Made by a program: the position numbers and the translations under genes. This document shows, in pieces, positions 9,103-31,832 of a DNA stretch of 64,000 nucleotides (position 1 is its first letter; each line of letters begins with the position of its first letter). Origin of the DNA: an uncultured Coprobacillus sp. (GTDB taxonomy: Bacteria; Bacillota_I; Bacilli_A; ML615J-28; CAG-698); the NCBI GenBank assembly GCA_964385755.1, contig CAYLPZ010000003.1:65052-129051 (forward strand), written 5' to 3'. The notes beneath the pieces are model-generated. The model saw nothing but the letters and a program-made list of their open reading frames with translations. It was not told the origin of the DNA and made no database searches.

Positions 9103-10171
9103 CAGTTGTCACCTCCTCTTTTACTTTTTTCTTAAAGATTTTTCTAAAGAGGTTTTTTATCTTCTTAATAAGATTTTTACAGTTTTGTTTAAAGTTCAAA
9201 ATGAACTTAGTCATACTAAATTCATGAATTCCAAATAACCCTTTAGGCGCAAAGATCATTATTAGAATTAATGCTAAAGAATAAATAATTAAACGTAAAG
9301 CACCAAAATTAGTTAATTTAATTGTTAAATAACTAAGAACTGTTGCTGAGAGGATGCTTCCAGTGTATGAGCCTAAACCACCAAATACTACCATAACTAA
9401 GTAATCAATTGATTTACTTAAGCCAAAGTTTTCAGGGTAAATTGAACCAATTGTATGAGCAAACATTGCACCACCAATTCCCGCAAATACAGCAGATACG
9501 GTGAATGCTAATACTTTATATCTTGTTACTGAAATACCAGACGCTTCTGATGCAATTTCATCTTCTCTTATTGATAAAATAGCTTTACCATGGCGAGAAG
9601 TCATAAATGAATATACGATAGCAACACAAATTACAGTTGTTACTAATGCAATTAATATACCCGCATAACCACCTAAATCTTTATTTGATGCACTTAATAC
9701 TTTTGGAAGACCTGATAAACCTTGTGAACCTTTTGTGATAGGTAAGTTCTTGATTAAACACCTAATAGCCTCACCAAAGCCAAGTGTTACAATTGCTAAG
9801 TAGTCACCTCTTAGTCTTAAACATGGAATACCAACGATTAATCCAAAGATTGCGCAAACTGCTGCAGATAATAAAATACATAGTAGAAATTGAACATACA
9901 TATTTTCCATTGGAAAATATTTGCAAAATAGACCTGAGATATATGCACCTATTGCCATAAATCCTGCTTGACCTAAAACTATTTCACCCATTGATCCAGC
10001 TGAAATGTTTAGTGATACTGCAACTACAATATTTATACAAATTGTGATCACTGTTGTTGTAAATGAACGACTAATAGACTTTGTTATTAAAGCTACAACT
10101 GCAATTAGTAAAATTGATGAAATCAAATTTACTAACATCGGAAAGCGTTTATGATTAATTAATTTTTTCAT
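9092..10171 (-). CDS. livM: branched-chain amino acid ABC transporter permease LivM (with charged C-terminal tail)
   Basis: Polytopic permease. It lies between the livH-like and livG genes, and its C-terminal KKIKNLFRKIFKKKVKEE tail overlaps the livG start. Confidence 0.7.
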   Translation of the reverse strand: MKKLINHKRFPMLVNLISSILLIAVVALITKSISRSFTTTVITICINIVVAVSLNISAGSMGEIVLGQAGFMAIGAYISGLFCKYFPMENMYVQFLLCILLSAAVCAIFGLIVGIPCLRLRGDYLAIVTLGFGEAIRCLIKNLPITKGSQGLSGLPKVLSASNKDLGGYAGILIALVTTVICVAIVYSFMTSRHGKAILSIREDEIASEASGISVTRYKVLAFTVSAVFAGIGGAMFAHTIGSIYPENFGLSKSIDYLVMVVFGGLGSYTGSILSATVLSYLTIKLTNFGALRLIIYSLALILIMIFAPKGLFGIHEFSMTKFILNFKQNCKNLIKKIKNLFRKIFKKKVKEEVTTDGK

Positions 10172-11058
10172 TATACTTTCTCCCTTCTATTTTTACCTAG
10201 AATTCCAGATGGTTTAACAAGTAATATAAAGATCAAAATTGAGAATGTAATAACATCAACCCAAGCAGATCCAATATAAGGGATACATAAATGTTCTATA
10301 ACACCTATTATTAAGCCGCCAAGAACAGCTCCAGGGATTAATCCAATTCCACCAAGAACAGCAGCAACGAAGGCCTTAATACCTAAAGTTGAGCCAAGCA
10401 TATTATTAAATCCTTGGTAATAGATACAATACATTACAGAAGCTAATCCCGCAAGCATAGCTCCAATGATAAATGTTGTAGAAATTGTTTTATCAACATT
10501 AATTCCCATCAAAACTGCCGCATCAGGATTTTCACTTACAGCTTTCATTGCTTTTCCTGGTCTTGTCTTATTTACAAATAACGTTAACACTGTAGTACTT
10601 ATTATTAGTAATACTATCATAAGTATTAATTTCCATTGAATTGTTAAATCACCTAATGTAAATGATCCTAAATCAGGAATTATTTCAGGTGACTCTTTAT
10701 CACGACTACTAAATGCAAGTGCAAATAAATTCTCAAGTAAGAATGATACTGCAATTGCAGTAATTAGAGCTGTGATTCTTTTTGATTTTCTTAAAGGTTT
10801 ATAAGCTAATTTTTCAGTTAGAAAACCTAATAATCCCGTTAATACCATTGTTATTAAGACACTAAAGACGGGTGGAATACCTAGTCCTAATAGAATATTT
10901 GTAGCACCTAATGCTACGAAGCAGCCTACCATTATAAAATCGCCATGGGCAAAGTTTATTAGTTTTATAATTCCATAAACCATTGTATATCCAAGTGCGA
11001 CAAGTGCGTAGATACTACCAGACGATAAACCATTTATTAAGTATTCAAAAAATTCCAT
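10171..11058 (-). CDS. livH: branched-chain amino acid ABC transporter permease LivH
   Basis: The N-terminus MEFFEYLINGLSSGSIYALVALGYTMVYG is the classic LivH start. The protein is polytopic. Confidence 0.75.
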   Translation of the reverse strand: MEFFEYLINGLSSGSIYALVALGYTMVYGIIKLINFAHGDFIMVGCFVALGATNILLGLGIPPVFSVLITMVLTGLLGFLTEKLAYKPLRKSKRITALITAIAVSFLLENLFALAFSSRDKESPEIIPDLGSFTLGDLTIQWKLILMIVLLIISTTVLTLFVNKTRPGKAMKAVSENPDAAVLMGINVDKTISTTFIIGAMLAGLASVMYCIYYQGFNNMLGSTLGIKAFVAAVLGGIGLIPGAVLGGLIIGVIEHLCIPYIGSAWVDVITFSILIFILLVKPSGILGKNRREKV

Positions 11059-19235: not shown

Positions 19236-20465
19236 CTATTTGTCTAATTTCTCTCTTTCAAGAGGCATACACATACATCTTGGGCCACCACGACCTCGTG
19301 ATAATTCACTAGATGGAATAGTATGAACCTTTATACCATATGATTTTAAAAGATCATTAGTAATGTTATTTCTTTCATATGTAATAACCTCACCCGGAGC
19401 AATCGCAATACAGTTGCTACCATCACTCCATTGTTCACGATCTGCAGAAACTTGATCTTTTCCACCACAAGGAATTAAAGTAATCTTTCGTTTTAAGATA
19501 CTACTTAGAATTTCTTCTAAACTTCCAGTTAGTTCAGTTGTTTTTAATAGTACATCACTAGTCTCATCTTTTTCAACACAAAACACTTTGAAACTATCAT
19601 AACATTCTTGATGCACAGTAAACTTATCGTAATCAATTTGTGTAAAAATTGTATCTAAATGCATAAAAGTTCTTTGCTTTGGAATAGACAAAACAATAAT
19701 TCTTTTAAGTTTTGATTTATATTCATAAAATAAGTTCTTTGCTAATTTTTCAATTGCTTCAGCAGAAGTACGTTCACTAACACCTATTATTAGTGTATCT
19801 TCATTCAATACTAGAATATCTCCACCTTCTATATTATATTTATATTCTCTATCGTAGAAGAATTTTGTTCCTTTGTATTCAGGATGATACATAAAAATAT
19901 ATTTACCATAAATTGTTTCACGACATCTAGTTTTTGAATACATTTTATTAAGAATGATTCCATCTTCAAATGTTACAAATGGATCTCTTGTAAAATATAA
20001 ATTTGGCATAGGATTAGTAATAAACTTATTATCTTTAACAAAATCTGAAAGTGATTTTTTTTGATAATTTGGAAGTTCACTTCTCTTAATCCCCGCCATA
20101 GTTTTAATAACTAAACTTTTTGTATCTTCAATTTTATTTAAATAATCACATACAGCCTTCTTTAGATGTTCATTTGATATTTCAGCCTCATTTACATATT
20201 CAGAAATAAATTGTTCTCTAACATCCTTTGAACTATTTAGTGCTTCAGTTACTAAATCAACCAAATATACTACTTTTACATTTGCATCTCTAAATGTTTG
20301 TGCAAAAGCTCTATGTTCCTTTTTAGCTAGTGGAAGCCAAGGAATATCATCAAATAGTAATTCACCTAAATAAGCTGGTGTTAAATTATTTAATTCCTCT
20401 CCCGGTTCATGTAAAAGGACGGTTTTTAATCGTCCAATTTCAGAGTTTACGAATAATTTACTCAT
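19236..20465 (-). CDS. arcA: arginine deiminase
   Basis: [25 protein letters not shown] is the classic ADI N-terminus, with the C-terminal catalytic Cys region [12 protein letters not shown]. The preferred start is 20465 (RBS AAGGAG); the track start is 20489. Confidence 0.85.
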
Positions 20466-20478
20466 TATTTTCTCCTTC

Positions 20479-21045
20479 TTATGCGCCATCCCAGTGATTG
20501 TCGCAAGTGTTTTTTATCTTTTTTAAAGAATATTCTTTTTCCATATCATTAAGCATATCAATATCTTCTCCAGTTTTAAAAATATTATGCTTACTAGAAT
20601 ACTTTTTTTCTTTAATTTTTTTATCACTAGACTTATTTAAATCATATATAATCGAAGATATTTCATAACTACTTTTATTATCAATATCTAGCACAAAACA
20701 TTTTTTATTTTCATTAAAATCTAAAGACATACTCTTTTTTATTAATAAAACATTTAAGTAGTTATCGTTAAGAATAGTTTTCATTAAATCATATATTTTT
20801 TTACTTGTGATAATATTATATGCGATAACACTTTTTTCTTCATTTTTACGTTTTTCAATGTCAATAAACATTTTTTCTATACTTTTAAATAATTCATCTT
20901 CATTTATATCTTCATATGAATTTATTTTTAAATAATTATTAATTGATACTATTTCATATTTATAGTTATATAAGATATTAAGTATTCTTATAATATCAGA
21001 TTTATCAGATGAAACTAGGTTATTTATTAAAATTACTTTATTCAT
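20479..21045 (-). CDS. hypothetical protein (Asn/Lys-rich, no recognisable domain), immediately upstream of arcA
   Basis: 188-aa ORF. Its stop lies 14 nt before the arcA start. Confidence 0.4.
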   Translation of the reverse strand: MNKVILINNLVSSDKSDIIRILNILYNYKYEIVSINNYLKINSYEDINEDELFKSIEKMFIDIEKRKNEEKSVIAYNIITSKKIYDLMKTILNDNYLNVLLIKKSMSLDFNENKKCFVLDIDNKSSYEISSIIYDLNKSSDKKIKEKKYSSKHNIFKTGEDIDMLNDMEKEYSLKKIKNTCDNHWDGA

Positions 21046-21046
21046 A

Positions 21047-21571
21047 TTATCTAAATGGGTAATTTAAATATGTAAAGAGCATAGCTAGAAATAAAAACAA
21101 AAAGGCTAAAGTATTAATACTTAATTTAAGTAGAGTAGTTTTAATATCTTTTCTTCTTCTAACATACATAACCATCAATAAAACAACAAATAATGATACT
21201 GAAATAGCAAAGAAAATGGTAGCAAAAGTTGTAGTTAATCCCTTATTGAAAGGTATTAAATCTGTCATATAGTTTGCATACCATATTCCTATAATCATAA
21301 ATAATATTCCGACAGGAATGGCAATTAACATTTGTTTTTCAAACCAAGTAACGCTAATATCCTTCTTCACATCTAAATATTTATTAACATTTTTTAATCC
21401 ACTAGATAATGCACAAAGTACAACACCAAAAACAAAAAATGCATTCTTAATCATAATCATTGCAAACGCTGCAGCAAGAACATAAAAAAATAATGGCAAG
21501 AAATTTAAATAAACTAGATATGCTGGCATTTGTATGTTTTTATTTTTTTTGTTTCTATTTCCCATAATCAA
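21047..21571 (-). CDS. small membrane protein (4-5 TM), unknown function
   Basis: Hydrophobic helices. It overlaps or abuts the next ORF, so it is probably co-transcribed with the arc genes. Confidence 0.4.
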   Translation of the reverse strand: MIMGNRNKKNKNIQMPAYLVYLNFLPLFFYVLAAAFAMIMIKNAFFVFGVVLCALSSGLKNVNKYLDVKKDISVTWFEKQMLIAIPVGILFMIIGIWYANYMTDLIPFNKGLTTTFATIFFAISVSLFVVLLMVMYVRRRKDIKTTLLKLSINTLAFLFLFLAMLFTYLNYPFR

Positions 21572-21661
21572 ACCTCTTATAATGTTTCTTTTTTACTATT
21601 ATACACAAAATCATCAAAAAATTAAACTATTTATTGCTTTTTATATTTTTATAAATATTAA

Positions 21662-21700
21662 AATGGTGAACCTCAAAGGAATTCACCACTTGTTTTTTTC
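21662..21700. terminator. bidirectional hairpin terminator (TGGTGAA-n11-TTCACCA, T-runs on both sides)
   Basis: Read directly from the sequence, downstream of the rhodanese gene on the minus strand. Confidence 0.5.
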
Positions 21701-21740
21701 TTTGAATATAATTTATCATTAATACATAGAAAACAATTAT

Positions 21741-22145
21741 CTATTTACCATATTCAAGTTTGCCATTATAATCGAGAATTCCACCAATCTCAATTATATT
21801 TGTATATCCAAGTTTTACAAGTTTACTAGATGCTTGTTTGCTGCGAGAACCACTACGACAATATACATAAATATTTTGTCTTTTATTTGGTAATAATGAA
21901 ATCTCAAAAGTTCCAATTGTTTCATTTGGAATGTTTATAGCACCAGGGATATGTCCTGCGATAAACTCATCTTCCCTGCGAACATCTACCAAAATGTATC
22001 CTTTATCTTCTTGCATTCTTGCAAGAGCTTCAGACATAGAAATAGATTCATATGTGTTCTGATTTTTATCAGAATCTGGTTTTCTACATCCTAACCCAAA
22101 AAGCAACAAAAATAATATTAATGGTAATAATTTTATTGGCATCAT
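21741..22145 (-). CDS. rhodanese-domain sulfurtransferase lipoprotein
   Basis: Lipobox LFGLGC. The rhodanese active-site loop is YCRSGSRS, and the flanking motif ILVDVRREDEFIAGHIPGAINIP is present. Confidence 0.75.
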   Translation of the reverse strand: MMPIKLLPLILFLLLFGLGCRKPDSDKNQNTYESISMSEALARMQEDKGYILVDVRREDEFIAGHIPGAINIPNETIGTFEISLLPNKRQNIYVYCRSGSRSKQASSKLVKLGYTNIIEIGGILDYNGKLEYGK

Positions 22146-22172
22146 CTAACTCCTAAATTAATGCTAAAATAA

Positions 22173-22481
22173 TTATTTTAATAATTCCTCTAATATAGTT
22201 TTTGGCATAGCTCCTACTTTTTGTTTTACAATCTTTCTATCTTTTATTACTACAAACATAGGAATACTTGAAACTTGGAAATAACTAGCAAGCTCTGGTT
22301 CATCATCAACATTTACTTTTCCGATAATTGCTTTTCCTTGATATTCATTTGCAAGTTCCTCAACTACAGGTGACATCATACGGCATGGTCCACACCAAGG
22401 AGCCCAAAAGTCAATTAGAATTGGTAACTCGCTTTTTAAAGCTTCCTCAAAGTTTTCTTTTGTAATTTTTAGTTCAGACAT
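22173..22481 (-). CDS. trxA: thioredoxin
   Basis: WCGPC active site. The preferred start is MSELKIT at 22481 with RBS AAAGGAG. The track ORF begins upstream at 22568, and I consider that hydrophobic extension unlikely to be translated. Confidence 0.8.
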   Translation of the reverse strand: MSELKITKENFEEALKSELPILIDFWAPWCGPCRMMSPVVEELANEYQGKAIIGKVNVDDEPELASYFQVSSIPMFVVIKDRKIVKQKVGAMPKTILEELLK

Positions 22482-22810
22482 ATATTCCACTCCTTTATTA
22501 AATTTTTTTATCATCAAAATAAATCCTTTTATGAAAAGCATCACTATTATAATAAACATATAATACATTATTATAGATAATATATGATTCTTCTAGCTAT
22601 TCATGTAAAATAATAAGATACACCATTATTTTTATATCTTTATTATTATTATATTATTTATTACTATTTTTTTCAAGAATCGTGACATATATACAAATTA
22701 AAAAGTGGTGAAACAATTTTATATACAAACGAAGCACTATCAACAGGCTTTAATATTTTTCTTAGTACTGGTGGGAATGCTAAAATTCAGTCGTATTACT
22801 GAGATGTTTC

Positions 22811-23161
22811 TTATTCCACCGTGTTAATAACCAAAAACGGCTTACGCCCGAATTTGTCCACAAGGGGACGGTAGAAAATAATAAGCAACGTTACCGGATA
22901 GGAAATAAAACCTATGGCGGAAAAGAGCGATAATCCCTCGCCGTATTCCATACCCATATTTTTTACGAAGAATTCCGTAACTATATTCGCCTGAAACTGA
23001 ATGGATATAGTAGACGCTATTTCGTCCGTTATGAAGATGAGCGACAAAATCATAAACAAGTAAGTCAGATAAAACTTGTTGCTTCTTGCGCCCAACTGTT
23101 TTTCGCGGCGGATAAGTTCTTTGGCTTCGCGCGCCTGTAATCGTTCAACGTTTTTTGCCAA
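22811..23161 (-). pseudogene. N-terminal fragment of an MFS transporter, truncated at island boundary
   Basis: The 116-aa ORF ends with PLVDKFGRKPFLV, the MFS loop 2-3 signature. The reading frame stops exactly at the left compositional boundary. Confidence 0.45.
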
Positions 23162-23199
23162 GCGGTAAGCTTTCTCCCGCTTTTTGCTTTTTGTTTATC

Positions 23200-24258
23200 T
23201 TATTTGTGGCGCATACGATACTCAAATTCATCAACGCGTTCTCCCGTCTTTTTCATTTCGTCGAGAGTTTTACGTTGGTTTTCAAGATTGCGTTCATTCT
23301 GCTTTGCAAGTTCTGCGTTGTGTGAAGCCTGTTGCTTTGCTCTGAACTCAGCATCCTCGTGCATTTTCTTTGTTGTCCTGTTAAGGTCGTCGAGCTTTTG
23401 GTTTATTGAATTGCGTGTTTCAATATTTATCATATTTTGAATGTTGATCTGCTGCTGTGTTTTGTCAGCTATTATACATTCCTTAGCTATAGAGTTGAAA
23501 TCATCCTCAGAGGTGGCTGTCATTCCAAGCTTTATAAAATAGTCTTGCTGATCGTAAGGAGTGTTTTCAAAAAGAAATAATACTCGCTCTCCAACTATAG
23601 CCTTTGCCTCCTCGGCGACATCACTAAGTGTGCTATCCCTTCTGACCTCGGCATCAGCATATGCTTTCTCGAATGTTAACAACAGCTCAGAAAAGTAATT
23701 CTTTGTAATGCTCTGTGCCTTGGAAACAAGCGCAGAAAGCACAGCTTCGTCAGGCTTGTTCTTCTTAATAGCTATAATAACGTCAAGAAGTCCCAAACCT
23801 ATTCCGACCATGGTGATCTTCGGCATCGAGAGTGCCAATCCGGTGAATAACGCAGACGCTGCCAAAAGACCGAGCATTAAAACGCCAAAAAGTTTAAGAA
23901 AGCTTCCTGTAAGAGGCTTATTTACGCCCTTTTTAAGCTCATCCCTTACATTGCTCTGAATTTCGAGCAATTTAGACTCATACGCCGATGTTTCAGCGCG
24001 CATTTGTTCTGTATATTTAATATTTAACAAATCACATCCGTACTTAACGTTATCGCCAAGGCGGGATGCTTTGCCATCGTATTGATCCAATAGATATCTT
24101 ATTTGCTCGACTATATTGCGGTCGTTAAGCCCATCTGCGATCGCGCGCTTGCTTTTTAGACTTTCGATATATTGATACGCCTTGGTAAAAGAGCGCTCTA
24201 TATTTTTTTTGTCCTCACGGTACTTAGTGAGGTACTGCATAGCTTTGGCATAATTCAT
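23200..24258 (-). CDS. hypothetical protein with central pair of TM helices and coiled-coil C-terminus (island cargo)
   Basis: 352-aa ORF. Hydrophobic stretches LKLFGVLMLGLLAASALFTGLAL and ITMVGIGLGLLDVIIAI. The C-terminus is Gln/Glu/Lys-rich. Confidence 0.4.
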   Translation of the reverse strand: MNYAKAMQYLTKYREDKKNIERSFTKAYQYIESLKSKRAIADGLNDRNIVEQIRYLLDQYDGKASRLGDNVKYGCDLLNIKYTEQMRAETSAYESKLLEIQSNVRDELKKGVNKPLTGSFLKLFGVLMLGLLAASALFTGLALSMPKITMVGIGLGLLDVIIAIKKNKPDEAVLSALVSKAQSITKNYFSELLLTFEKAYADAEVRRDSTLSDVAEEAKAIVGERVLFLFENTPYDQQDYFIKLGMTATSEDDFNSIAKECIIADKTQQQINIQNMINIETRNSINQKLDDLNRTTKKMHEDAEFRAKQQASHNAELAKQNERNLENQRKTLDEMKKTGERVDEFEYRMRHK

Positions 24259-24501
24259 TTTATTTTCCTCCGAGTAATATATAGTTGTACCATAAGCATA
24301 CCACGCCTTTTGATAAAATGCAATATGATATACGAATAAATATACTGAAAATTTTATTTTGTAAAGGTAAAATGCCCTATCAGTTGGATAAGTGAAAATA
24401 TAAGAAACAAAAAAAGCCCGAACCTTTTTCCAATGGTAAAAAAGTTCAAGCCATTTGCGTTTGGTGACCCTGTGCCCAAGAAAGTCTAACCTATAAAATG
24501 G

Positions 24502-25350
24502 TTAAATATAATAAATAGTCAAATAGTAGTTATGCCAAAGCCCAAAAGCAAATTCGGTATAAGTCGAAGATGAGGTATTACCTAAATTTATCTCACTCAA
24601 CGACGGGCGCGTCAAATAATAAGATGCTGAATTATAATTTTGAAATATGTGCCACATTACCACCAATTTGCCTTTTCCCGTAGCAACGTGAGCTTTATAT
24701 TGATAAGCCGCCAACTGATTTTCGGTTATGCCTGTTGTGTAATACCTTTCAGCAGAATTTTCGCTATCAAAAAGATAAAAATACTCGCAATCGACAAAAT
24801 CGGAACTCAATAAATTTAAAAGAGCAGTATTGTTGTCAACAGTAATTTTTTCTTCGCTGACACTTTCAATATCCGTAAGCTCGATAACCTTATAAATTAC
24901 GCCGACTTCGGTATCAAACGCCCCTTTCTCGGTAGCGATAGCGGTTATTTTTTCGTTAAGTTTAGCGTTTGTAGAAAGTACATAACGATTATTATCGACA
25001 TTTATTCCGTTCAATGAAATGCCGTAAGAGTTTGCGCCTTGTCGTATCGTAAACGAAGTGTTGTTGCCAGGCGCAGGCGGTTCATTACCTAAATTAGTAA
25101 GTTTGGCGGTAAGTACCAAATTAACTATTTCGTCTATATTGCTCTTATCTTCAATAGTAAACTGAAAGCCGTCCTTTTTTCCGTTATCGAAATCCACGTC
25201 TATTTTATCGCCACCCGAAAGCATATCCGAATAAAATTCAATATCGCTTATTGCGTTTATTTGATTAGCCTTATCGGTACAGCCAGCAAACGCAAATAAT
25301 GCTATACAAGTAATAGCCGATAATAAAAACGCTATAACAGTTTTTTTCAT
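24502..25350 (-). CDS. lipoprotein of unknown function (island cargo)
   Basis: Signal plus lipobox (ALFAFAGCTDK). No recognisable domain. Confidence 0.4.
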   Translation of the reverse strand: MKKTVIAFLLSAITCIALFAFAGCTDKANQINAISDIEFYSDMLSGGDKIDVDFDNGKKDGFQFTIEDKSNIDEIVNLVLTAKLTNLGNEPPAPGNNTSFTIRQGANSYGISLNGINVDNNRYVLSTNAKLNEKITAIATEKGAFDTEVGVIYKVIELTDIESVSEEKITVDNNTALLNLLSSDFVDCEYFYLFDSENSAERYYTTGITENQLAAYQYKAHVATGKGKLVVMWHIFQNYNSASYYLTRPSLSEINLGNTSSSTYTEFAFGLWHNYYLTIYYI

Positions 25351-25365
25351 ATCATTACACCCTTA

Positions 25366-25402
25366 TTTAATTTTTCACTATTATATCTTTTTCACTATTA
25401 TA
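25366..25402. repeat. two tandem 17-bp direct repeats TTTTTCACTATTATATC (iteron-like)
   Basis: Exact repeat copies at 25366-25382 and 25386-25402. They sit in the intergenic region next to the origin-like hairpins and the Rep gene. Confidence 0.45.
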
Positions 25403-25470
25403 TCATACGCAAGTCTTTTTAGCAATAGCTTAAGTGGGATAAACACTTATTAAAATTAAAAGGGCAGTTA

Positions 25471-25525
25471 TGCGTGAGCTTGTCTTGACGAGCGCGCGAC
25501 TACGCCGCGCGGACAAGCTCACGCA
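25471..25525. promoter_or_regulatory. GC-rich nested stem-loop (14-bp perfect stem TGCGTGAGCTTGTC / GACAAGCTCACGCA enclosing a CGCGCG...CGCGCG sub-hairpin): candidate rolling-circle origin
   Basis: Read directly. A second nested hairpin AAGGGCG...CGCCCTT lies at ~25576-25616. The Rep gene is ~750 bp downstream. Confidence 0.4.
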
Positions 25526-25780
25526 ACAAAATAAATAAATCGACTAAATAAACGTATTTGAAAGCCGAGCGGAAGGGCGTTCGCCGCTGAACCGCTTGGC
25601 GATTCGCCCTTTCCTCTCGCTCTGCGGTGATTTCAAATAATATCGTTTTATTACAGCCGATTTGCTTTTCTTTTTGTTGGCGGTGGGGCTTTTCCGCTTA
25701 ATCGTCGCAGAGATTAACCCTAATTCCGCTCGCTTTGTTCATAACTGAAAAATTTTTTTAAAAAATATACAAACATTTGT

Positions 25781-25809
25781 TTGACTTTTAAAATTGTTGG
25801 TTATATAAT
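25781..25809 (+). promoter_or_regulatory. strong sigma-A-type promoter (-35 TTGACT, 17 nt, -10 TATAAT)
   Basis: TTGACT at 25781-25786 and TATAAT at 25804-25809. Confidence 0.5.
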
Positions 25810-25815
25810 AATCAA

Positions 25816-26104
25816 ACGCACAAAAAAGTGCGAGTGCAATTTAATATTGGAACTGCGTCAATAGGAAATCTATTGTGCAGCTAAAACAGCAGACCAGAGG
25901 TTAAGTTAAGGAGCAAAGTAGCGATTAAGCGAAAGCCGGTTCACCCCCAACAAAGAAAAGGTGCAGAGTTGCGTTTTGATAAGAGAGAAGATAGCACACT
26001 CTTATTCTATTAAGGGAATATAATATTCTCTTAATTTTAACGGGCGATGTACAAAGTTTTATGAGATTAAGTTCTCGTAAGATTTTGTACATCGCCCTTT
26101 TTTC
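25816..26104 (+). ncRNA. candidate ~290-nt non-coding RNA bounded by promoter and a strong intrinsic terminator
   Basis: No convincing ORF. The terminator at the end is GGGCGATGTACAAA-n28-TTTGTACATCGCCC followed by a T-run, and it sits upstream of the Rep gene. Confidence 0.3.
26042..26104 (+). terminator. intrinsic terminator (14-bp stem, long loop, T-run CTTTTTTCG)
   Basis: Read directly from the sequence. Confidence 0.55.
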
Positions 26105-26280
26105 GTGCAAATTTTCGAAACGGAGGACAGAAATTTGCAGGAAAACAAGACAAAAAAAGACATTGAGGTCAGGAGTATCGGAAAGCCGAACATTTCGGCA
26201 TTATCCGAGAGTGAACAGGCGGTATTCTACGCCACCCTATTAAAGCGAATAACGGAGCTTGTAAAAGGGGGTGATAGAAA

Positions 26281-27165
26281 ATGAACTTAATCGGCGCAAA
26301 GGTTTACTTTGACGGCAGACATTGGATAGCTATTCGCCATACCGAACGAAGTTCCAAACGGCGAAGAAAGAGCATTAAGGCGCAGGACGACCCCACGGTT
26401 GAACAGTTTGAAAAGTCGTTTAACAAGACAACAAAGGGTAGAAATTCGAAGAAAAAAGAAAGCCTTTTGAAAGAGTTTTTACCCCACTTTGACAGCGAAA
26501 GCGAAGCTACGGAATTTGTAGAAACGCAGTTTGAACGGCTTAACCGCAACCGCATTGAAAGATTTAAAAGGTTAAAGCGAAAGGCGTATTTACAGCAATG
26601 GCACTACTTTTGCACTTTTACCTATGCGGACGGCAAGCAGACCGAAGAGAGTTTCAGAAAGCAGTTAATGAACTGTTTATACCATTTGGCTACACGAAAG
26701 GGTTGGAGATATATCGGAGCTTGGGAACGTGGTGAAGATAACGGAAGATTACACTTTCACGCTTTGGTCTATATACCGCCCGACGGTATGGTTGGAGAGT
26801 TTGAAGAACGTAACGATTTCAGCTTTAAAGCTCATAAACGGCAGGTTACTAATCAAAATACGTTTTTCAACGAGCGGTTTGGGCGTAACGATTTCGACAA
26901 GATTTCACATCAAATCGAAGTCGAGAACAGCGTTTACTATATGCTCAAATACATAACCAAGAATGACGAAAAGGTCGTTTATTCAAGGGGGTTAAAGAGC
27001 TATATCGTAGCGGACATTTTGGAAGAAGATATACTCTGCCCTTATGGTGATGACGAGAATGAATACAAATTTATACTTTCAGACGATTTCACCTGCATTA
27101 CGGACGGCGAGATTTTGGGAAAGGTCAGTCCCGAAGTCATAGAAAAAATGCCGAAAAGTAACTGA
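26281..27165 (+). CDS. rep: rolling-circle replication initiator (HUH endonuclease superfamily Rep)
   Basis: Motif I FCTFTYAD, motif II HFHALVY (HUH) and motif III VYYMLKYITKN (YxxKYxxK, the two-tyrosine type seen in phiX174 gpA-like and plasmid Reps). The basic N-terminal region is preceded by RBS AAAGGGGGTG. Confidence 0.6.
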   Translation: MNLIGAKVYFDGRHWIAIRHTERSSKRRRKSIKAQDDPTVEQFEKSFNKTTKGRNSKKKESLLKEFLPHFDSESEATEFVETQFERLNRNRIERFKRLKRKAYLQQWHYFCTFTYADGKQTEESFRKQLMNCLYHLATRKGWRYIGAWERGEDNGRLHFHALVYIPPDGMVGEFEERNDFSFKAHKRQVTNQNTFFNERFGRNDFDKISHQIEVENSVYYMLKYITKNDEKVVYSRGLKSYIVADILEEDILCPYGDDENEYKFILSDDFTCITDGEILGKVSPEVIEKMPKSN

Positions 27166-27364
27166 CCAAGAGTTTTTGTCTATCGACTTGCAGAGCGTAA
27201 ACGAAAACCCACGCTGTTGCAAGGGTAAAATGCACTACTTTCGTAGCCCTTGCATCAGCGCAGGAATAAGCCATAAAAAACGCTAAACAATGGCTTTCCG
27301 TTTGTTCGCCCCTTGTCGAAAGACAAAAGTTAAAAATCTATTTTAAAAGGAGTTTAAATTAAGA

Positions 27365-28846
27365 ATGAAAAAAGCAGTTATATATGCAAGATACTCTTGC
27401 GATAAGCAAACCGAACAATCAATCGAGGGTCAGTTGAGAGTTTGTCAGGAATATGCCAAAAGGAATGATATTCTAATTCTTAACACCTACATTGACCAAG
27501 CTATGTCAGGTACGAATGACAATCGTCCTGATTTTAAGAAAATGATTAAAGACAGCGCAAAGCGTGAATGGGATTTCGTACTCGTTTACAAACTTGATAG
27601 GTTTTCAAGAAATAAGTACGAAGCTACAATTCACAAGAAAACGTTAAGAGATAACGGTGTTAAGGTTATATCCGCTATGGAGAACATACCAGACACCCCC
27701 GAAGGAATTATCCTTGAAAGCCTACTTGAAGGAATGAACCAATACTATTCCGCAGAGCTTTCTCAAAAGGTTAAGCGTGGTATGAAAGAAACAAGATTAA
27801 AAGGTTATTACCAAGGCGGTGGCGTTCCGTATGGATATAAAATAGACGGACGAAAGGTTGTAATTGACGAAGAAAGAGCCGAAGTTGTCAGATATATGTA
27901 CGACGAATTTTCAAAGGGCGTAATCGTCAAAGATATTGTTAAGGCTTTGACCGATATGGGTAAGACCTACCGTGGTAAGCCGTTTGCGATGAACACAGTT
28001 TACGGAATACTGCGCAACGAAAAGTACATAGGAGTTTATAGAATTAACGACGAAGTTATAACCAATATGTACCCCAAGATAGTTGACGAACCTATTTTCA
28101 ACCGAGTAATAGCCATATTAGAACGTAATAAACGTGGTAGTCGCAGTCAAGAAACCAATTACCTATTAAAGCACAAATTAAAGTGCGGTTATTGCGGTAA
28201 CAATATCAACGGTGAATATGCTAAATCTCATACAGGAGCGAGCTTTTACTACTATAAATGCCGTGGTCGTAAATCGAAGTTAGCGGACTGTAAAAAAGGT
28301 ACTATTCAAAAGGATTGCCTTGAAAATCTTGTAATCGGTAACACCATAAAAGAGTTAAGCGACCCTATGAATATGCAGACGATTATTAACGGTATTCTTG
28401 AAATGCAAAGGCGAAACCTAAAAGAAAATTCCAAGTTAGCAGAGCTTAAAAGGGAACAGCGAGAGATTGAGATTGCCATTGACAACACTATGAAAGCGAT
28501 AGCACAAGGAGTTATTACAAAATCTACGGGGCAGTACCTTAAAACCTATGAAGAAAGGCAAGAAGAAATTATTAAGCAGATTGCCATTGAGCAGAGTAAG
28601 GAAACGGTTTTATTGACCGAAAAGGAAATTAGAAAGTTTTATGAAGATGCTTTAAAACTTGAACCTCAAATGCTTATAAATTACCTTGTAAAAGAGATAG
28701 TGTTATACGATAACCGAGCAGACATTATCTACACAAGTCCATTAAAATCTACGGATAGTCCTGACGATAGTCAGGGCTTTTCTTTTTACTCTAAAACGGT
28801 TAGAATTAAGAATAGGTACTTTATTATAACGCTGTATATCAAATGA
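27365..28846 (+). CDS. large serine recombinase (resolvase catalytic domain + recombinase domain + zinc ribbon)
   Basis: The N-terminus AVIYARYSCDKQTEQSIEGQ carries the catalytic Ser. VYKLDRFSRN, the recombinase domain GVPYGYKIDGRKVV and the zinc ribbon CGYCGNNING...YYYKCRGRK are present. RBS AAAGGAG. Confidence 0.8.
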   Translation: MKKAVIYARYSCDKQTEQSIEGQLRVCQEYAKRNDILILNTYIDQAMSGTNDNRPDFKKMIKDSAKREWDFVLVYKLDRFSRNKYEATIHKKTLRDNGVKVISAMENIPDTPEGIILESLLEGMNQYYSAELSQKVKRGMKETRLKGYYQGGGVPYGYKIDGRKVVIDEERAEVVRYMYDEFSKGVIVKDIVKALTDMGKTYRGKPFAMNTVYGILRNEKYIGVYRINDEVITNMYPKIVDEPIFNRVIAILERNKRGSRSQETNYLLKHKLKCGYCGNNINGEYAKSHTGASFYYYKCRGRKSKLADCKKGTIQKDCLENLVIGNTIKELSDPMNMQTIINGILEMQRRNLKENSKLAELKREQREIEIAIDNTMKAIAQGVITKSTGQYLKTYEERQEEIIKQIAIEQSKETVLLTEKEIRKFYEDALKLEPQMLINYLVKEIVLYDNRADIIYTSPLKSTDSPDDSQGFSFYSKTVRIKNRYFIITLYIK

Positions 28847-28925
28847 TATACGGCAATTTATTCCACAGTGCTATTGACAAGAGCCTCCAAGGCGTGTGGT
28901 ATTCAGGCAAAGAGCCAAATACCCA

Positions 28926-28950
28926 AGCCCTTGGGGGCTTTTGATTTGCC
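28926..28950 (+). terminator. intrinsic terminator after recombinase gene (AAGCCC-ttgg-GGGCTT + TTTGATTT)
   Basis: Read directly. It is embedded in a larger imperfect inverted repeat. Confidence 0.45.
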
Positions 28951-29397
28951 GTTGGCTGATAGCCTACCACACGCCATTCTCTTATCAATAGCCTTTTGCG
29001 GCATAAAGTGCCGTAAATAGCAAGCCAAATATAAGCGTTTTAAGGCTTGATTTTTCAGGTTGAAGAAATATTGCAAGACATAAAGAAAAGCCGTACAGAG
29101 CTATTCTGCGCGAATTAAAGGAGCGAAAAACAAAAGCCGAACCTCTCATTTGTGAAAAGTTCGACTTTGTTAAGTGTTGGTGACCCGTACGGGAATCGAG
29201 ACGGTGAGCAATAAAAAAGAAGGATACCTTCGGACTGTTTAATTAGGGATTTTCTAAAAACAGTCTAAAAGTCGGCTCAGAACAAAAAAACCACATCCAA
29301 GAGTTTATAAGCTCAAGGGGGTGGCTTTTTGTTGCTCAAATAAGCAATAGATACAATTAATAGTTTAAAATATTAGTGTAAAATTGCTTAATTTGAG

Positions 29398-29601
29398 GTG
29401 AAAATTATGATTTATGGGTACACAAGAGTAAGTACTAGAAAACAAGTTGACGGTTACGGGTTAGAGGTACAAAAAAATGAAATTTTGAGCAAATATCCTA
29501 CTGCCACCATAATTGATGAACAATACACGGGTACTAAATTAGATAGACCCGTTTTTAACGCACTTTTAGAAGGCTTGCAGAAGATTATATTGATTATATG
29601 A
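29398..29601 (+). pseudogene. N-terminal 60-aa fragment of a small serine recombinase (resolvase/invertase), truncated
   Basis: MIYGYTRVSTRKQ...GLEVQKNEI...RPVFNALLEGLQK is the catalytic-Ser motif of resolvases. The frame then ends after IILII, where the 120-aa remainder is missing. Low-GC DNA. RBS GAGGTG. Confidence 0.5.
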
Positions 29602-29784
29602 TGGCCTACCTCCTTTTTCTAACTCTTTATCTGTAATAGATTTAAGAAAATCACATACACCAGACTTTTCTAACAATTCTAAAAATCTATTTATTTTTAA
29701 AACTTCTTTCTCTTTTATTACAAATGAGGGTATCAAAAAAATTTGTTTTGTGTTATAATATTTCATGTAGTAATAATGCGGCAC
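29566..29784 (-). pseudogene. N-terminal ~70-aa fragment of an IS1182/IS5-like transposase (DUF772 region), truncated
   Basis: LIPSFVIKEKEVLKINRFLELLEKSGVCDFLKSI...EKGGRPSYNQYNLL parallels the conserved IS1182-family N-terminus (...DHFVRFI..VD.LDL...GRPAY.P..LLK). It ends where it meets the resolvase fragment. Confidence 0.4.
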
Positions 29785-29849
29785 ATTATTATATCACAAA
29801 AACGCTCCGGGTTGGATTCCCCGAGCGTTTTAATTTTTTATATATAATA

Positions 29850-29872
29850 AATGGGCTATAATAGCCCATTTA
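29850..29872. terminator. perfect 11-bp palindromic hairpin AAATGGGCTAT-aat-ATAGCCCATTT + T-run; terminator downstream of recD
   Basis: Read directly. A second GC-rich hairpin AAAACGCTCCGGG...CCCGAGCGTTTT lies at 29795-29835. Confidence 0.5.
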
Positions 29873-29903
29873 ATTTTGAGGTTTTTTTACATCCTCCATA
29901 TTT

Positions 29904-31832
29904 TTATTTAATATTAGTCATTCGTTCAATTGTTTTACATTTACCTTCTTCTAATCTTTCTTGGTTTGACAAAATGTAAGTATTACCTTTTGTTCTTGTG
30001 ATTGCAGTATAAACAATCTCACGTGTAAGAAGTGGATGACCTTTCTTTTTTGGCAGAATAACTAAAATATTTTTAAAATCTGATCCTTGTGATTTATGAA
30101 TTGAAATAGTATACGCTAATGTAATTTCATCAGATGCAAATAATCTAACAGGATAGAATAAATATTCTCCTAATTTAAAAATCTTATTTTCTCTCTTTCC
30201 ATCTTCAGTATAAAACTTTGAAGTCTTCTTTAGCATTAAGTATAAAGTATCATCTTCTGCGAAAGAAACAATTATTCCTGTATCTCCATTATATACTTCT
30301 AATGTAGTGTTGTTTTTAGTGATCATAATAATCATTCCTGGGTAATAACCATTATATTCACTCTTGTAAGTCTTATCTATTACTAAATTTTTAACTAGTT
30401 CATTGATTTTAATATTCCCTCTTAATCCTTCGTTCTCAGCAGTTAAGATTCTTGACAGTTCAATTTCACTTTCTAATGTCTTAAGTACATCTAAATCATA
30501 CTCGCTTAGATTACTAGCTTTTCCTTGTAGATTCTTATAAAAATGTTTAGCCCAAACACCTACTACTTTCTTTATGATTTCTTCTTCAGAGGCTTTTTCA
30601 TCATTATCTAAGTAATAATATATAGGTTTTGTAACAAAGTTATCTTCCTCTATTTTAAAAGAATCATAGTTCTTCCATTCACTACTTGAAACTGGCAACT
30701 CTTGATTATTATTAATTGCGTTTGCTAGAGCGTATATTTTAGTTTTATCTGAAAATCTAATCGATACATCTAAGGCAACTATATTATCTTTTAGTGTATC
30801 CATTTTTAATAAATCACCAAAAACGGCACCACAATCAACTGATGGAAGTTGATTCTTATCACCCATGATAAAAAGTTTTGCATTAGTAGGAATAGCTTCT
30901 AAAAGAGATGAGAATATATTTATATCAATCATACTTGCTTCATCGATAATAAAAATCGAATTTTCATCAAATTGATTACTTCGATTTTTCGAAAAAGTAT
31001 TTGTCATACTACTATACGCAAGTAAGCGATGAATAGTTGCTTCATTTGATTTCTTTATTTTCTCTATAATATCATTATTGTTTAAAATAAACTCTTCTTT
31101 TAATCTACTTATTCCACCCAAAATGCTTTCTTTCATTCGTCCTGAAGCTTTTCCACTTGGAGCGGCTAAATATATTTCATATTCACTATTCTGTAGTAAT
31201 AAACTAATTAATAAAAATAAAATTGATGTGGTTTTACCAGTACCTGGTCCACCAGTAATAATTAAATTTTTATTAATACCTTCTTCTATTGCTTTTTTCT
31301 GTCCGAAAGATAAATTAAAACTAGATTTGTTTTCTAACCAATTTTCATATGATTCACAAGTGAAAGTTGTATTTGTAGTTTTAAACAACCTTCTAATGTC
31401 ATATTCAATTGATGTTTTTGCTTCATAATATTTTCTTGTATAGATGTAATCATCTTTTATAACAAATAAACCATATTCACCAAATATGCTTGAATTTTTT
31501 TTATCATTTAATAAGTTTAATGCTTTTTTTACAAATTCACATGCATTATCATAAATCACATCATACTCTAAAATATTATACTTTGGATTATCACCATATA
31601 ATACCTTTCTTCCCTGGCACTTTACCAAAAATCTATTTAAGATACCATTCTCATCAAGTAACATACATGTATTTCCATCATCAATAAATGAAAAATATAA
31701 AAGTAGAAAGCATAAAACATCATCTTCACTGATATCTAAAGAAAGCATTTGACAAACTTTTTGCCAGATAGGACTTAACAAATCATTTTTTACAAGTAAA
31801 TTACAAAATTCTTGATAATTCATAAAATCCAT
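29904..31832 (-). CDS. recD: exodeoxyribonuclease V alpha subunit (RecD, SF1 helicase)
   Basis: IITGGPGTGKTT...LAAPSGKAS...ATIHRLL...FIIDEASMIDI...LFIMGDKNQLPSVDCGAVFGDL tracks E. coli RecD motif by motif. Confidence 0.75.
   Translation of the reverse strand: MDFMNYQEFCNLLVKNDLLSPIWQKVCQMLSLDISEDDVLCFLLLYFSFIDDGNTCMLLDENGILNRFLVKCQGRKVLYGDNPKYNILEYDVIYDNACEFVKKALNLLNDKKNSSIFGEYGLFVIKDDYIYTRKYYEAKTSIEYDIRRLFKTTNTTFTCESYENWLENKSSFNLSFGQKKAIEEGINKNLIITGGPGTGKTTSILFLLISLLLQNSEYEIYLAAPSGKASGRMKESILGGISRLKEEFILNNNDIIEKIKKSNEATIHRLLAYSSMTNTFSKNRSNQFDENSIFIIDEASMIDINIFSSLLEAIPTNAKLFIMGDKNQLPSVDCGAVFGDLLKMDTLKDNIVALDVSIRFSDKTKIYALANAINNNQELPVSSSEWKNYDSFKIEEDNFVTKPIYYYLDNDEKASEEEIIKKVVGVWAKHFYKNLQGKASNLSEYDLDVLKTLESEIELSRILTAENEGLRGNIKINELVKNLVIDKTYKSEYNGYYPGMIIMITKNNTTLEVYNGDTGIIVSFAEDDTLYLMLKKTSKFYTEDGKRENKIFKLGEYLFYPVRLFASDEITLAYTISIHKSQGSDFKNILVILPKKKGHPLLTREIVYTAITRTKGNTYILSNQERLEEGKCKTIERMTNIK

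Follow-up and report, generated by a model that had tools for sequence, protein, structure and literature searches.

Described systems and the locus under study

Tn4451 and Tn4453 are small elements of Clostridia in which a large serine recombinase (LSR) is accompanied by a canonical Mob relaxase and resistance genes. IME_Rho_tet, a small element of gut Firmicutes, has ends defined by an LSR and carries a Mob relaxase with MobC and resistance genes (PMC12904643). The integrative and mobilisable elements (IMEs) of streptococci use rolling-circle replication (RCR) initiators of the PHA00330, Rep_trans, Rep_2 and Viral_Rep kinds as putative relaxases, together with tyrosine or serine integrases, and many of them occupy the 3' ends of tRNA genes and occur as tandem arrays (PMC5357655, PMC5704250). 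Their named types include Rel_PHA00330, Rel_PF02486/MobT and Rel_PF01719, one of the elements being IME_SpnA45_tRNAleu (Coluzzi et al. 2017 PMC5357655; Guedon et al. 2017 PMC5704250). The integrative and conjugative elements of actinomycetes (AICEs), such as pSAM2, integrate in tRNA genes and use RepSA for RCR of the excised circle, and the pSAM2-like insertion Sco3937 has a serine integrase (PMC2440964). Relaxase-driven RCR after excision is also attributed to ICEBs1 and Tn916 in work cited by PMC5704250. Here we describe a 4.7-kb unit at positions 24471-29186 of a 64,000-nucleotide stretch of an uncultured Coprobacillus sp. (contig CAYLPZ010000003.1, positions 65,052 to 129,051; the whole stretch is called the window, and coordinates refer to it unless another contig is named). 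The unit encodes a Rep protein of the HUH endonuclease type and an LSR, and it is inserted at a relic of a tRNA-Glu gene. The combination of a rolling-circle Rep with an integrase at a tRNA gene has been seen before; for the family to which this unit belongs we found no description. The initial annotation of the locus had seen no standard precedent for the arrangement, which the streptococcal IMEs (PMC5357655, PMC5704250) and the AICEs (PMC2440964) provide.

The mobile unit and its attachment sites

Three Logan contigs (L030-L032, from ERR3588730/52/54), reached through the 90% cluster of a 352-residue protein encoded next to the unit, cover the same host locus, with genes for AddA, a RecD-like helicase, the 352-residue protein, a thioredoxin and a rhodanese. 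They are 98-99% identical to the window on both sides, and the equivalent of position 24470 is joined directly to that of 29177 via a single copy of TTGGTGACCC. The extra DNA of the window amounts to 4,716 bp bounded by this 10-bp repeat, and the mobile unit spans 24471-29186, with the 10-bp core counted once. A single-nucleotide polymorphism inside the tRNA relic that forms part of the attachment (att) site distinguishes L030 from L031 and L032, so that the empty site is present in at least two strains. The filled state is found again in an independent Logan contig (L013, SRR6824180), which is 100% identical to window positions 23131-28974 and spans the left junction, attL. Proteins of the GC-rich island around the unit are found verbatim in public assemblies. 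The initial annotation had placed a decayed element between 22790 and 29390 and had proposed a search for empty sites in related genomes. That search yielded attL and attR together with attB and a reconstructed attP; the proposed edges are limits of the GC shift only, and decay is contradicted by the intact genes, by the nucleotide-precise presence or absence in strains 98-99% identical to each other and by a 94%-identical copy at a different site.

The attL core TTGGTGACCC (24461..24470, plus strand) is common to the window and the empty site, and the window departs from L030 right after it, where the P' arm begins (TGTGCCCAAGAAAGTCTAACC..., 24471..24495, plus strand). This arm recurs with 2 mismatches at the left end of a related element (L022) and is an imperfect inverted repeat of the P arm at the opposite end (29133..29176, minus strand). 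A terminator-like hairpin in the P arm points towards the tRNA end, and the arm is conserved up to the tRNA 3' end in three relatives (L005, L019, L022). It is followed by the attR core, the second copy of TTGGTGACCC (29177..29186, plus strand), placed by comparison of the window with L030. On the chromosomal side, the B arm has a terminator-like hairpin of its own (24415..24452, minus strand), which on that strand lies downstream of the tRNA relic and which the empty site of L030 also has. The sites read ...GCCATTTGCGTT-TGGTGACCC-GTACGGGAATCGAGACGG... for attB (L030), ...GCCATTTGCGTT-TGGTGACCC-TGTGCCCAAGAAAGTCTAACC... for attL and ...GACTTTGTTAAGTGT-TGGTGACCC-GTACGGGAATCGAGACGG... for attR of the window. 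The reconstructed attP is GTTCGACTTTGTTAAGTGT-TGGTGACCC-TGTGCCCAAGAAAGTCTAAC; its junction is GTTAAGTGTTGGTGACCCTGTGCCCAAG and that of attB is CATTTGCGTTTGGTGACCCGTACGGG. attP can be read as an imperfect inverted repeat, GACTTTgTT ... AAgAAAGTC, whose centre falls between TGGTG and ACCC inside the core (14/24 in the window, 13/24 in L022), a symmetry that backs the att assignment as support rather than proof.

The closest relative of the LSR region of the window, L039, is 94.4% identical over 26702-29189 and continues directly after TTGGTGA into unrelated, non-tRNA DNA. This divergence sets the right end and confines the crossover to TTGGTGA; L039 is a copy of the element at another site in another metagenome. 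The 7.6-kb element of L022 has an attL in which ...TGGTGACCC is followed by TGCACCCAAGAAAGTCTAACC, with the same P' arm, and an attR at a tRNA-Glu gene. Site-specific insertion by the LSR at a site of the tRNA-Glu type is strongly supported, and so is recent mobility of the element.

The empty sites could instead have arisen without any recombinase, by slippage or microhomology-driven deletion between the two 10-bp repeats, the element being immobile in this host. A 178-nt indel flanked by the 10-nt repeat TTTTTTGCCA reveals that microhomology deletions do occur at this locus, and a one-off event of that kind at true att sites is compatible with the sequence. However, the 10-bp repeat coincides exactly with the element ends set independently in L022 and L039 and with the tRNA 3' end that relatives use, and the symmetry centre of attP lies inside it, so that we consider this explanation quite unlikely.

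A direct repeat between 22809-22835 and 28848-28870 (TTATTCCAC.GTG), whose left copy lies inside the coding sequence of a truncated transporter gene, was dismissed as a chance match. Comparison of 22600-23400 with 28840-29450 gave no inverted or direct repeats; terminal repeats are missing at the edges of the GC shift because those edges are not element ends. Like Tn4451/Tn4453 and IME_Rho_tet (6-11 kb), the element has LSR-defined ends and att arms resembling terminal inverted repeats; unlike them, it encodes an HUH Rep in place of a canonical Mob relaxase. IME_Rho_tet ends 81-90 bp past the recombinase stop codon (PMC12904643), whereas here this distance is ~340 bp and includes a conserved structured region, sR, and a terminator.

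The tRNA target

A 22-nt relic of a tRNA-Glu gene, from its 3' end (29178..29199, minus strand), makes up the B' half of the attachment site; it is identical to the 3'-terminal 22 nt of the tRNA-Glu(UUC) genes of L005 and L008. A scan of the window for tRNA genes found none. In relatives the element sequence stops exactly where an intact tRNA gene on the minus strand has its 3' end; the gene is tRNA-Glu(UUC or CUC) in six of them (L005, L008, L019, L020, L022, L023), tRNA-Leu in L001 and L014, tRNA-Ser in L024 and tRNA-Ala in L029. Direct repeats of tRNA length, in the manner of the 3' duplications of tyrosine integrases, are absent from the left ends of the relatives, which fits a serine integrase needing no long att identity. 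Since the terminator hairpin of the P arm faces the tRNA, integration swaps out the downstream terminator of the tRNA gene.

Signs of tandem accretion are found among the relatives. The B arm at the attL of L022 (L022:5280-5348) resembles the P arm and spacer of L014-type elements, and in L007:3130-3250 an incomplete tRNA-Leu-like stub precedes a further cargo block. These arrangements suggest that new copies may land at the junction of a resident element and the tRNA.

Proteins encoded by the element

The rep gene (26281..27165, plus strand) codes for a Y2-type HUH endonuclease with the signatures H158-F-H160 and Y220-x-x-x-Y224, the HUH motif being N-terminal to the tyrosines as in Reps and not as in relaxases. 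Rep matches the Pfam family PF23343 (REP_ORF2-G2P) over residues 109-228 with 48.4 bits against a cut-off of 27.8, and Phage_GPA weakly. The initial annotation had recognised an HUH Rep from the motifs FCTFTY, HFHALVY and YYMLKYITK, an identification that this profile match upholds; across 32 homologues there is no variation in motif I (FCTFTY), H158-F-H160 or Y220-x-x-x-Y224. No family was found for Rep in PHROGs, NCBIfam or PADLOC, and a sequence search of PDB came back empty. The protein has the HUH nuclease fold, and its closest predicted-structure neighbours in BFVD are Microvirus initiators. With Microviridae VP4 and phiX174 gpA-type initiators it shares the succession of HUH and a YxxxY double-tyrosine motif, a likeness confined to fold and motifs, at 15-23% identity and with neither phage gene context nor a PHROG family. 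Its YxxKY spacing is what we take to be that of the phiX174 gpA type.

The phage-like features of Rep raise the question of an integrated single-stranded DNA (ssDNA) phage of microvirus- or inovirus-like type, or of a phage satellite using the capsid of a helper. The Pfam family takes its name from phage Reps (SpV1 ORF2, G2P), the structural neighbours are those just mentioned and a size of 4.7 kb is phage-like. However, capsid, morphogenesis and packaging genes are absent by Pfam and PHROGs, neither Rep nor the cargo has a PHROGs match, and IMG/VR, searched with the single Rep and with a Rep alignment, holds no relative. The relatives bear large cargo of cellular type (restriction-modification (RM), Hachiman, Fic), and the only 'phage' match for Rep is an unannotated 57-kb metagenomic 'Bacteriophage sp.' record, at 39% identity. 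We regard a phage nature of the element as highly improbable. This Rep with 39% identity is encoded in MT835493.1, one of two bacterial-looking records from human faeces deposited as 'Bacteriophage sp.'. The absence of capsid and Mob genes in the initial annotation stands, and it extends to genes of type IV secretion systems (T4SS).

Overlapping the start codon of rep is a 49-codon open reading frame (ORF) with a TTG start (26135..26284, plus strand), which is called as a gene in L013. Its product is conserved in 13 relatives, has no match to a known family and is a candidate regulator or recombination directionality factor.

Downstream of rep lies the gene of the 493-residue LSR (27365..28846, plus strand), which has the Pfam domains Resolvase, Recombinase and Zn_ribbon_recom and matches the phrog_95 integrase with 2.5e-107; the large serine recombinase proposed earlier at the right end is borne out by these three domains. 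The catalytic-serine motif, read from the sequence, is YARYS at residues 7-11. TP901-1, A118 and TnpX are among its relatives with solved structures. Judged from its predicted domains the LSR is complete, and the LSR, Rep and the small ORF are all full length relative to their relatives.

The sole cargo gene (24502..25350, minus strand) encodes a predicted lipoprotein of 282 residues, with a signal peptide and the lipobox FAGC read from its sequence; its 90% cluster has 245 members. Neither this protein nor the 352-residue one has a family match in Pfam, PHROGs, NCBIfam or PADLOC. The absence of recognisable domains noted earlier for the two is confirmed; the 352-residue gene is not cargo, being retained in element-free strains. 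Three mouse-gut contigs (L033-L035, ~9870-10880) have the same lipoprotein gene, along with the sequence downstream of it and a P'-like arm (TGGTGAAC-TTGCGTCCAAGAAAGCCGAACC). There the lipoprotein gene and P'-like arm end a region that continues into a prophage-like element with a tyrosine integrase, and of the structured region sL only the first 48 nt are found.

Promoter, leader and structured regions

Three non-coding segments of the element are structured and conserved. The region sL (25457..25640, plus strand) has two long hairpins and is a candidate double-strand origin (dso), single-strand origin (sso) or origin of transfer (oriT). It is 74-97% identical across relatives, reaching 80-82% where the Rep DNA is at 71-75% (L001, L008), and 6 of its 44 predicted pairs show compensatory changes, with G-U pairs on the plus strand. 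The initial annotation had described an origin-like region of iterons and nested hairpins; the hairpins are real and conserved, and the iterons reduce to two tandem 17-nt copies (25371-25404) in the promoter region of the lipoprotein gene, outside the conserved module.

A sigma-70-type promoter, TTGACT-17-TATAAT (25781..25809, plus strand; 11/12 matches), kept in most relatives, precedes a structured leader of ~290 nt (25816..26103, plus strand). The leader ends just 5' of the small ORF in a 20-bp terminator hairpin (26046-26093) followed by a T-run. It has 6 compensatory pairs and several invariant G-U pairs, which favours a plus-strand RNA, and it may be an attenuator controlling the expression of Rep and the LSR. 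Rfam, run on 22000-30500, returned only sub-threshold chance matches and no family for the leader.

The 165-nt region sR (28846..29014, plus strand), past the LSR gene, is a candidate single-strand origin or 3' RNA element. Over 17 sequences, 13 of its 42 predicted pairs show compensatory double changes, as in GCTATTGACAAGAG/CTCTTATCAATAGC versus CCGCTTGACACGAG/CTCATATCAAGCGG, and G-U pairs occur only on the Rep-sense strand.

The older foreign layer

In 500-nt windows the GC content is 0.36-0.43 across ~22750-29350, versus 0.24-0.30 on both sides. The means within the block are 0.415 for the truncated transporter gene, 0.412 for the 352-residue gene, 0.386 for 24471-29176 and 0.383 for 29200-29340, and those of the flanks are 0.278 (22.8 kb side) and 0.275 (34.7 kb side). 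The block is unique in the whole 64 kb, where no other 1-kb window exceeds a GC of 0.35. The GC shift and the foreign origin claimed in the initial annotation are both corroborated, with a step of ~12 points rather than 15. The GC-rich block is foreign and composite: a 4.7-kb mobile unit lies inside an older patch of foreign DNA. The transporter fragment, the 352-residue gene and the tail at 29200-29340 are assigned to the older layer because they are present in the element-free strains.

The transporter gene, of the major facilitator superfamily (MFS), lies outside the mobile unit (22790..23161, minus strand; ORF 22811-23161). It survives as a 116-codon ORF with a weak Pfam match to MFS_1 only and is kept at 99% identity in L030-L032; it is truncated and GC-rich as described in the initial annotation, and not a part of the mobile element. 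At 23151-23160 the window is short of 178 nt that its sister strains have (L030, reverse complement, 2311-2488), the gap being flanked by the 10-nt repeat TTTTTTGCCA. This deletion took the ATG and the upstream region of the already truncated gene. The 352-residue membrane/coiled-coil protein (23200..24258, minus strand) belongs to a tiny family of 17 homologues, a distant member of which is found among ordinary chromosomal genes (L036). The tail (29200..29340, no strand assigned; GC 0.38) ends in a hairpin, likewise outside the mobile unit and present in L030-L032.

Megablast of the island against plasmids gave no match, and against phages only 136 nt of the MFS gene, in a bacterial-looking record mislabelled 'Bacteriophage sp.', the sole other DNA match of the start of that gene. 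This record, GenBank MT839602.1 (L038), from human faeces, has TrmB-like, XRE-membrane and MgtC-like ORFs and lacks phage genes. The bacterial-looking match and the tiny 352-residue family with its chromosomal member fit the idea that the older layer may be a scrap of some donor chromosome. Its history leaves two options: either the layer came with the element, which was later excised in the L030 lineage, or the layer was there first and served as the landing pad. As for the older layer being a decayed sister element, an alignment of the left arm of attB with the P arms shares only the hairpin and an A-run.

The composition of the block bears on the reading of the whole as one decayed 6.6-kb integrated rolling-circle replicon, with the MFS fragment as its truncated left edge and both the 352- and the 282-residue proteins encoded by cargo. 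The entire 22790-29340 block is compositionally foreign and the MFS gene is truncated, as this reading has it. However, the sister contigs keep the MFS fragment, the 352-residue gene and the right tail and lack exactly 24471-29176 plus one core copy, the full-length Rep, LSR and small ORF are conserved, and the DNA in common with relatives extends neither to the left of 25445 nor to the right of 29199. A single decayed replicon is thereby very hard to sustain.

The left flank of the island (19236-22568) is ordinary host DNA, collinear with L030 and L032, with genes for arginine deiminase, small membrane proteins, a rhodanese-domain lipoprotein and thioredoxin. To the right of the island, 29398-29784 encodes a 67-residue N-terminal fragment of a small resolvase (Pfam Resolvase 1.2e-8), overlapped on the minus strand by a 72-codon ORF which has no Pfam match and presumably resembles the N-terminus of an IS1182-like transposase. 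This segment is decayed mobile-element debris, found also in the element-free contigs.

A family of related elements

Rep has 3,572 homologues in databases at E <= 1e-3, most of them from gut metagenomes and nearly all unnamed or 'hypothetical protein', one JGI entry being called 'predicted metallopeptidase'. The named genomes that bear them are those of Christensenella, Coproplasma and 'Clostridia bacterium' metagenome-assembled genomes (MAGs). A literature search found no paper on this Rep family or mentioning PF23343. The small integrative element class surmised in the initial annotation holds in this weaker form, as more than 3,500 Rep homologues on which no paper was found.

A backbone of ~3.7 kb is common to more than 25 loci. 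It consists of sL, a strong promoter, the ~290-nt leader with its terminator, the TTG-start ORF overlapping the start of Rep, Rep itself, sometimes an ORF of 205-214 codons, a recombinase, the 165-nt sR and a spacer. The recombinase is exchangeable among LSRs of 493-507 residues, a DUF4368-type LSR of 542 residues and a tyrosine integrase (L001-L004). The cargo, to the left of the backbone and mostly on the opposite strand, is variable and includes Fic, Eco57I-type RM genes, ResIII helicases, Hachiman HamA, reverse transcriptase and Macro; the small accessory ORFs of relatives (205-214 and 62-79 codons) give only weak hints of helix-turn-helix proteins. The GC content of the backbone is ~0.40 family-wide, below that of the usual hosts (0.45-0.53) and above that of the host of the window (0.275). 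Beyond the three sister contigs, the host helicase has only ~50%-identical neighbours, the few named ones being 'Bacilli bacterium' MAGs, and a search for empty sites through this helicase in GTDB representative genomes found no relative. The Clostridia relatives and the Bacilli lineage of the present host indicate that the element crossed between classes.

In L008-L012, relatives of ~10 kb that encode the 542-residue LSR of DUF4368 type interrupt the rep gene of another, resident relative. The insertion falls at the motif I codons (FCTFTY; window-equivalent 26614-26625), for instance at L011:1286-11735, with junctions at ~1285 and ~11735. These elements have perfect 17-nt terminal inverted repeats, TTTTATGGACACTATTC, and the same right junction against three different rep genes. 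They look like an element lineage that targets the rep genes of its relatives.

Proposed mode of life

We consider it probable that 24471-29186 is an intact small integrative element lodged in older foreign DNA, which integrates through its LSR and undergoes Rep-driven replication after excision. The LSR joined the attP of the element to an attB made of the 22-nt tRNA-Glu 3' relic, with crossover within TTGGTGA. Excision probably requires a directionality factor, for which the product of the 49-codon ORF could serve. After excision, the Y2 HUH Rep would nick sL or sR on the plus strand and drive RCR of the circle, the other structured region acting as single-strand origin. The same nicking could permit mobilisation by a conjugative element, a route that has been suggested for IMEs whose relaxases are Rep-like. 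We infer one or the other role, RCR or mobilisation, for Rep. Before induction, the leader-terminator appears to block expression of the operon formed by the small ORF, Rep and LSR.

Several points weigh against this interpretation. The polymorphism can stand either for gain in the lineage of the window or for excision in that of L030. The symmetry of attP is only modestly above chance (shuffle fraction 0.05). By the textbook rule, LSRs recombine attP with attB only; under it, both the P-arm-like left half of attB here and the tandem arrangements of L022 are unexpected. As to an excised circle, the ends of L013 do not overlap and no circular contig was found, and a single metagenome pattern scan for attL/attP (core and P' arm) gave 0 matches. 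For Rep, no nick site was identified, and tblastn against the 72,556 plasmid records of PLSDB returned no match. With neither a PLSDB match of Rep nor a circular contig, the element does not have the features of a rolling-circle plasmid, and the absence of the Rep family from plasmid records leaves no evidence of life as a free replicon. Furthermore, sL and sR could be RNA elements (3' untranslated regions, terminators) and not ssDNA origins, as the G-U evidence sets the strand and not the type of molecule.

The element is also a candidate IME. It has its own integration and excision module in the LSR and the defined att sites, and on the side of mobilisation the HUH Rep is a possible relaxase and sL or sR a candidate oriT; genes for TcpA, MobC and a T4SS are absent from it. 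In the version of the IME reading that overlaps the interpretation above, Rep is mainly a non-canonical relaxase nicking an oriT in sL or sR, a co-resident conjugative element transfers the circle, and vegetative RCR is secondary or absent. The streptococcal IMEs with their phage-type RCR initiators, tyrosine or serine integrases and frequent location at tRNA 3' ends (PMC5357655, PMC5704250) speak for it, as do the lack of the Rep family among plasmid records and the spread from Clostridia relatives to a Bacilli host. The predicted fold of Rep, closest to Microvirus initiators of what may be the PHA00330 kind, points the same way. However, the element has neither the coupling protein TcpA, present in most streptococcal Rep-type IMEs, nor a MobC-like accessory gene, and no conjugative element is visible in the window. 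Such a primarily mobilising role of Rep is possible, and in our view less likely than not.

In its small size, phage-type HUH Rep with integrase, tRNA 3' ends, variable cargo, tandem arrays and lack of a T4SS, the family resembles the streptococcal IMEs. It differs from them by the missing TcpA, by the use of an LSR in place of a tyrosine integrase for tRNA targeting (so in the window and in most relatives), by a putatively different Rep family, by its hosts, gut Clostridia and an uncultured Bacilli lineage, and by the conserved sL, sR and leader modules. With AICEs it shares integration in tRNA genes and a rolling-circle Rep; these have an FtsK-like Tra for conjugation of double-stranded DNA and Kor/Pra regulators, which are not present here, and their Rep family and host phylum are unrelated. 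No ORF for an FtsK/SpoIIIE-type Tra was found in the 4.7-kb element, and because of this it is not counted among the AICEs. ICEBs1 and Tn916, as far as they are covered by the work cited in PMC5704250, offer the parallel of a single HUH protein that can serve both plasmid-like RCR of the excised element and transfer; unlike the present 4.7-kb element devoid of transfer genes, they measure at least 20 kb and are self-transmissible, with a full T4SS and Rep_trans-type relaxases.

Significance for the element family and its hosts

The presence or absence of the element among near-identical strains of an uncultured Bacilli lineage amounts to recent mobility, and the Clostridia relatives point to transfer between classes. 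The locus provides a complete set of attP, attB, attL and attR for an LSR that naturally targets a tRNA-Glu 3' end and for which a 22-nt half-site is evidently enough; such att pairs are raw material for genome-engineering recombinases. The leader-terminator and the two covarying structures are candidates for the control of excision and replication and for origins.

Taken together, the observations allow us to put forward, tentatively and at somewhat less than even confidence, a large family, as yet without a name, of 'integrative rolling-circle elements' that target tRNA genes in gut Clostridia and of which the window would contain one member. Its fixed backbone would comprise sL, an attenuator-type leader RNA, the small ORF, a Microvirus-like Y2 Rep, an exchangeable LSR or tyrosine integrase and sR. 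The P arm would regenerate the landing site and the tRNA terminator, leading to tandem accretion. The family would ferry defence systems and cross between classes, and a sister lineage with DUF4368-type LSRs would hit the motif I codons of the rep genes of its relatives. If true, this last insertion would be a case of inter-element parasitism or competition. Behind the more than 3,500 Rep homologues there turns out to be a coherent family of integrative elements of small size, often with restriction-modification, Hachiman, Fic or reverse-transcriptase cargo, and its annotation would account for many of the small 'defence islands' beside tRNA genes in Christensenellales-like bacteria.

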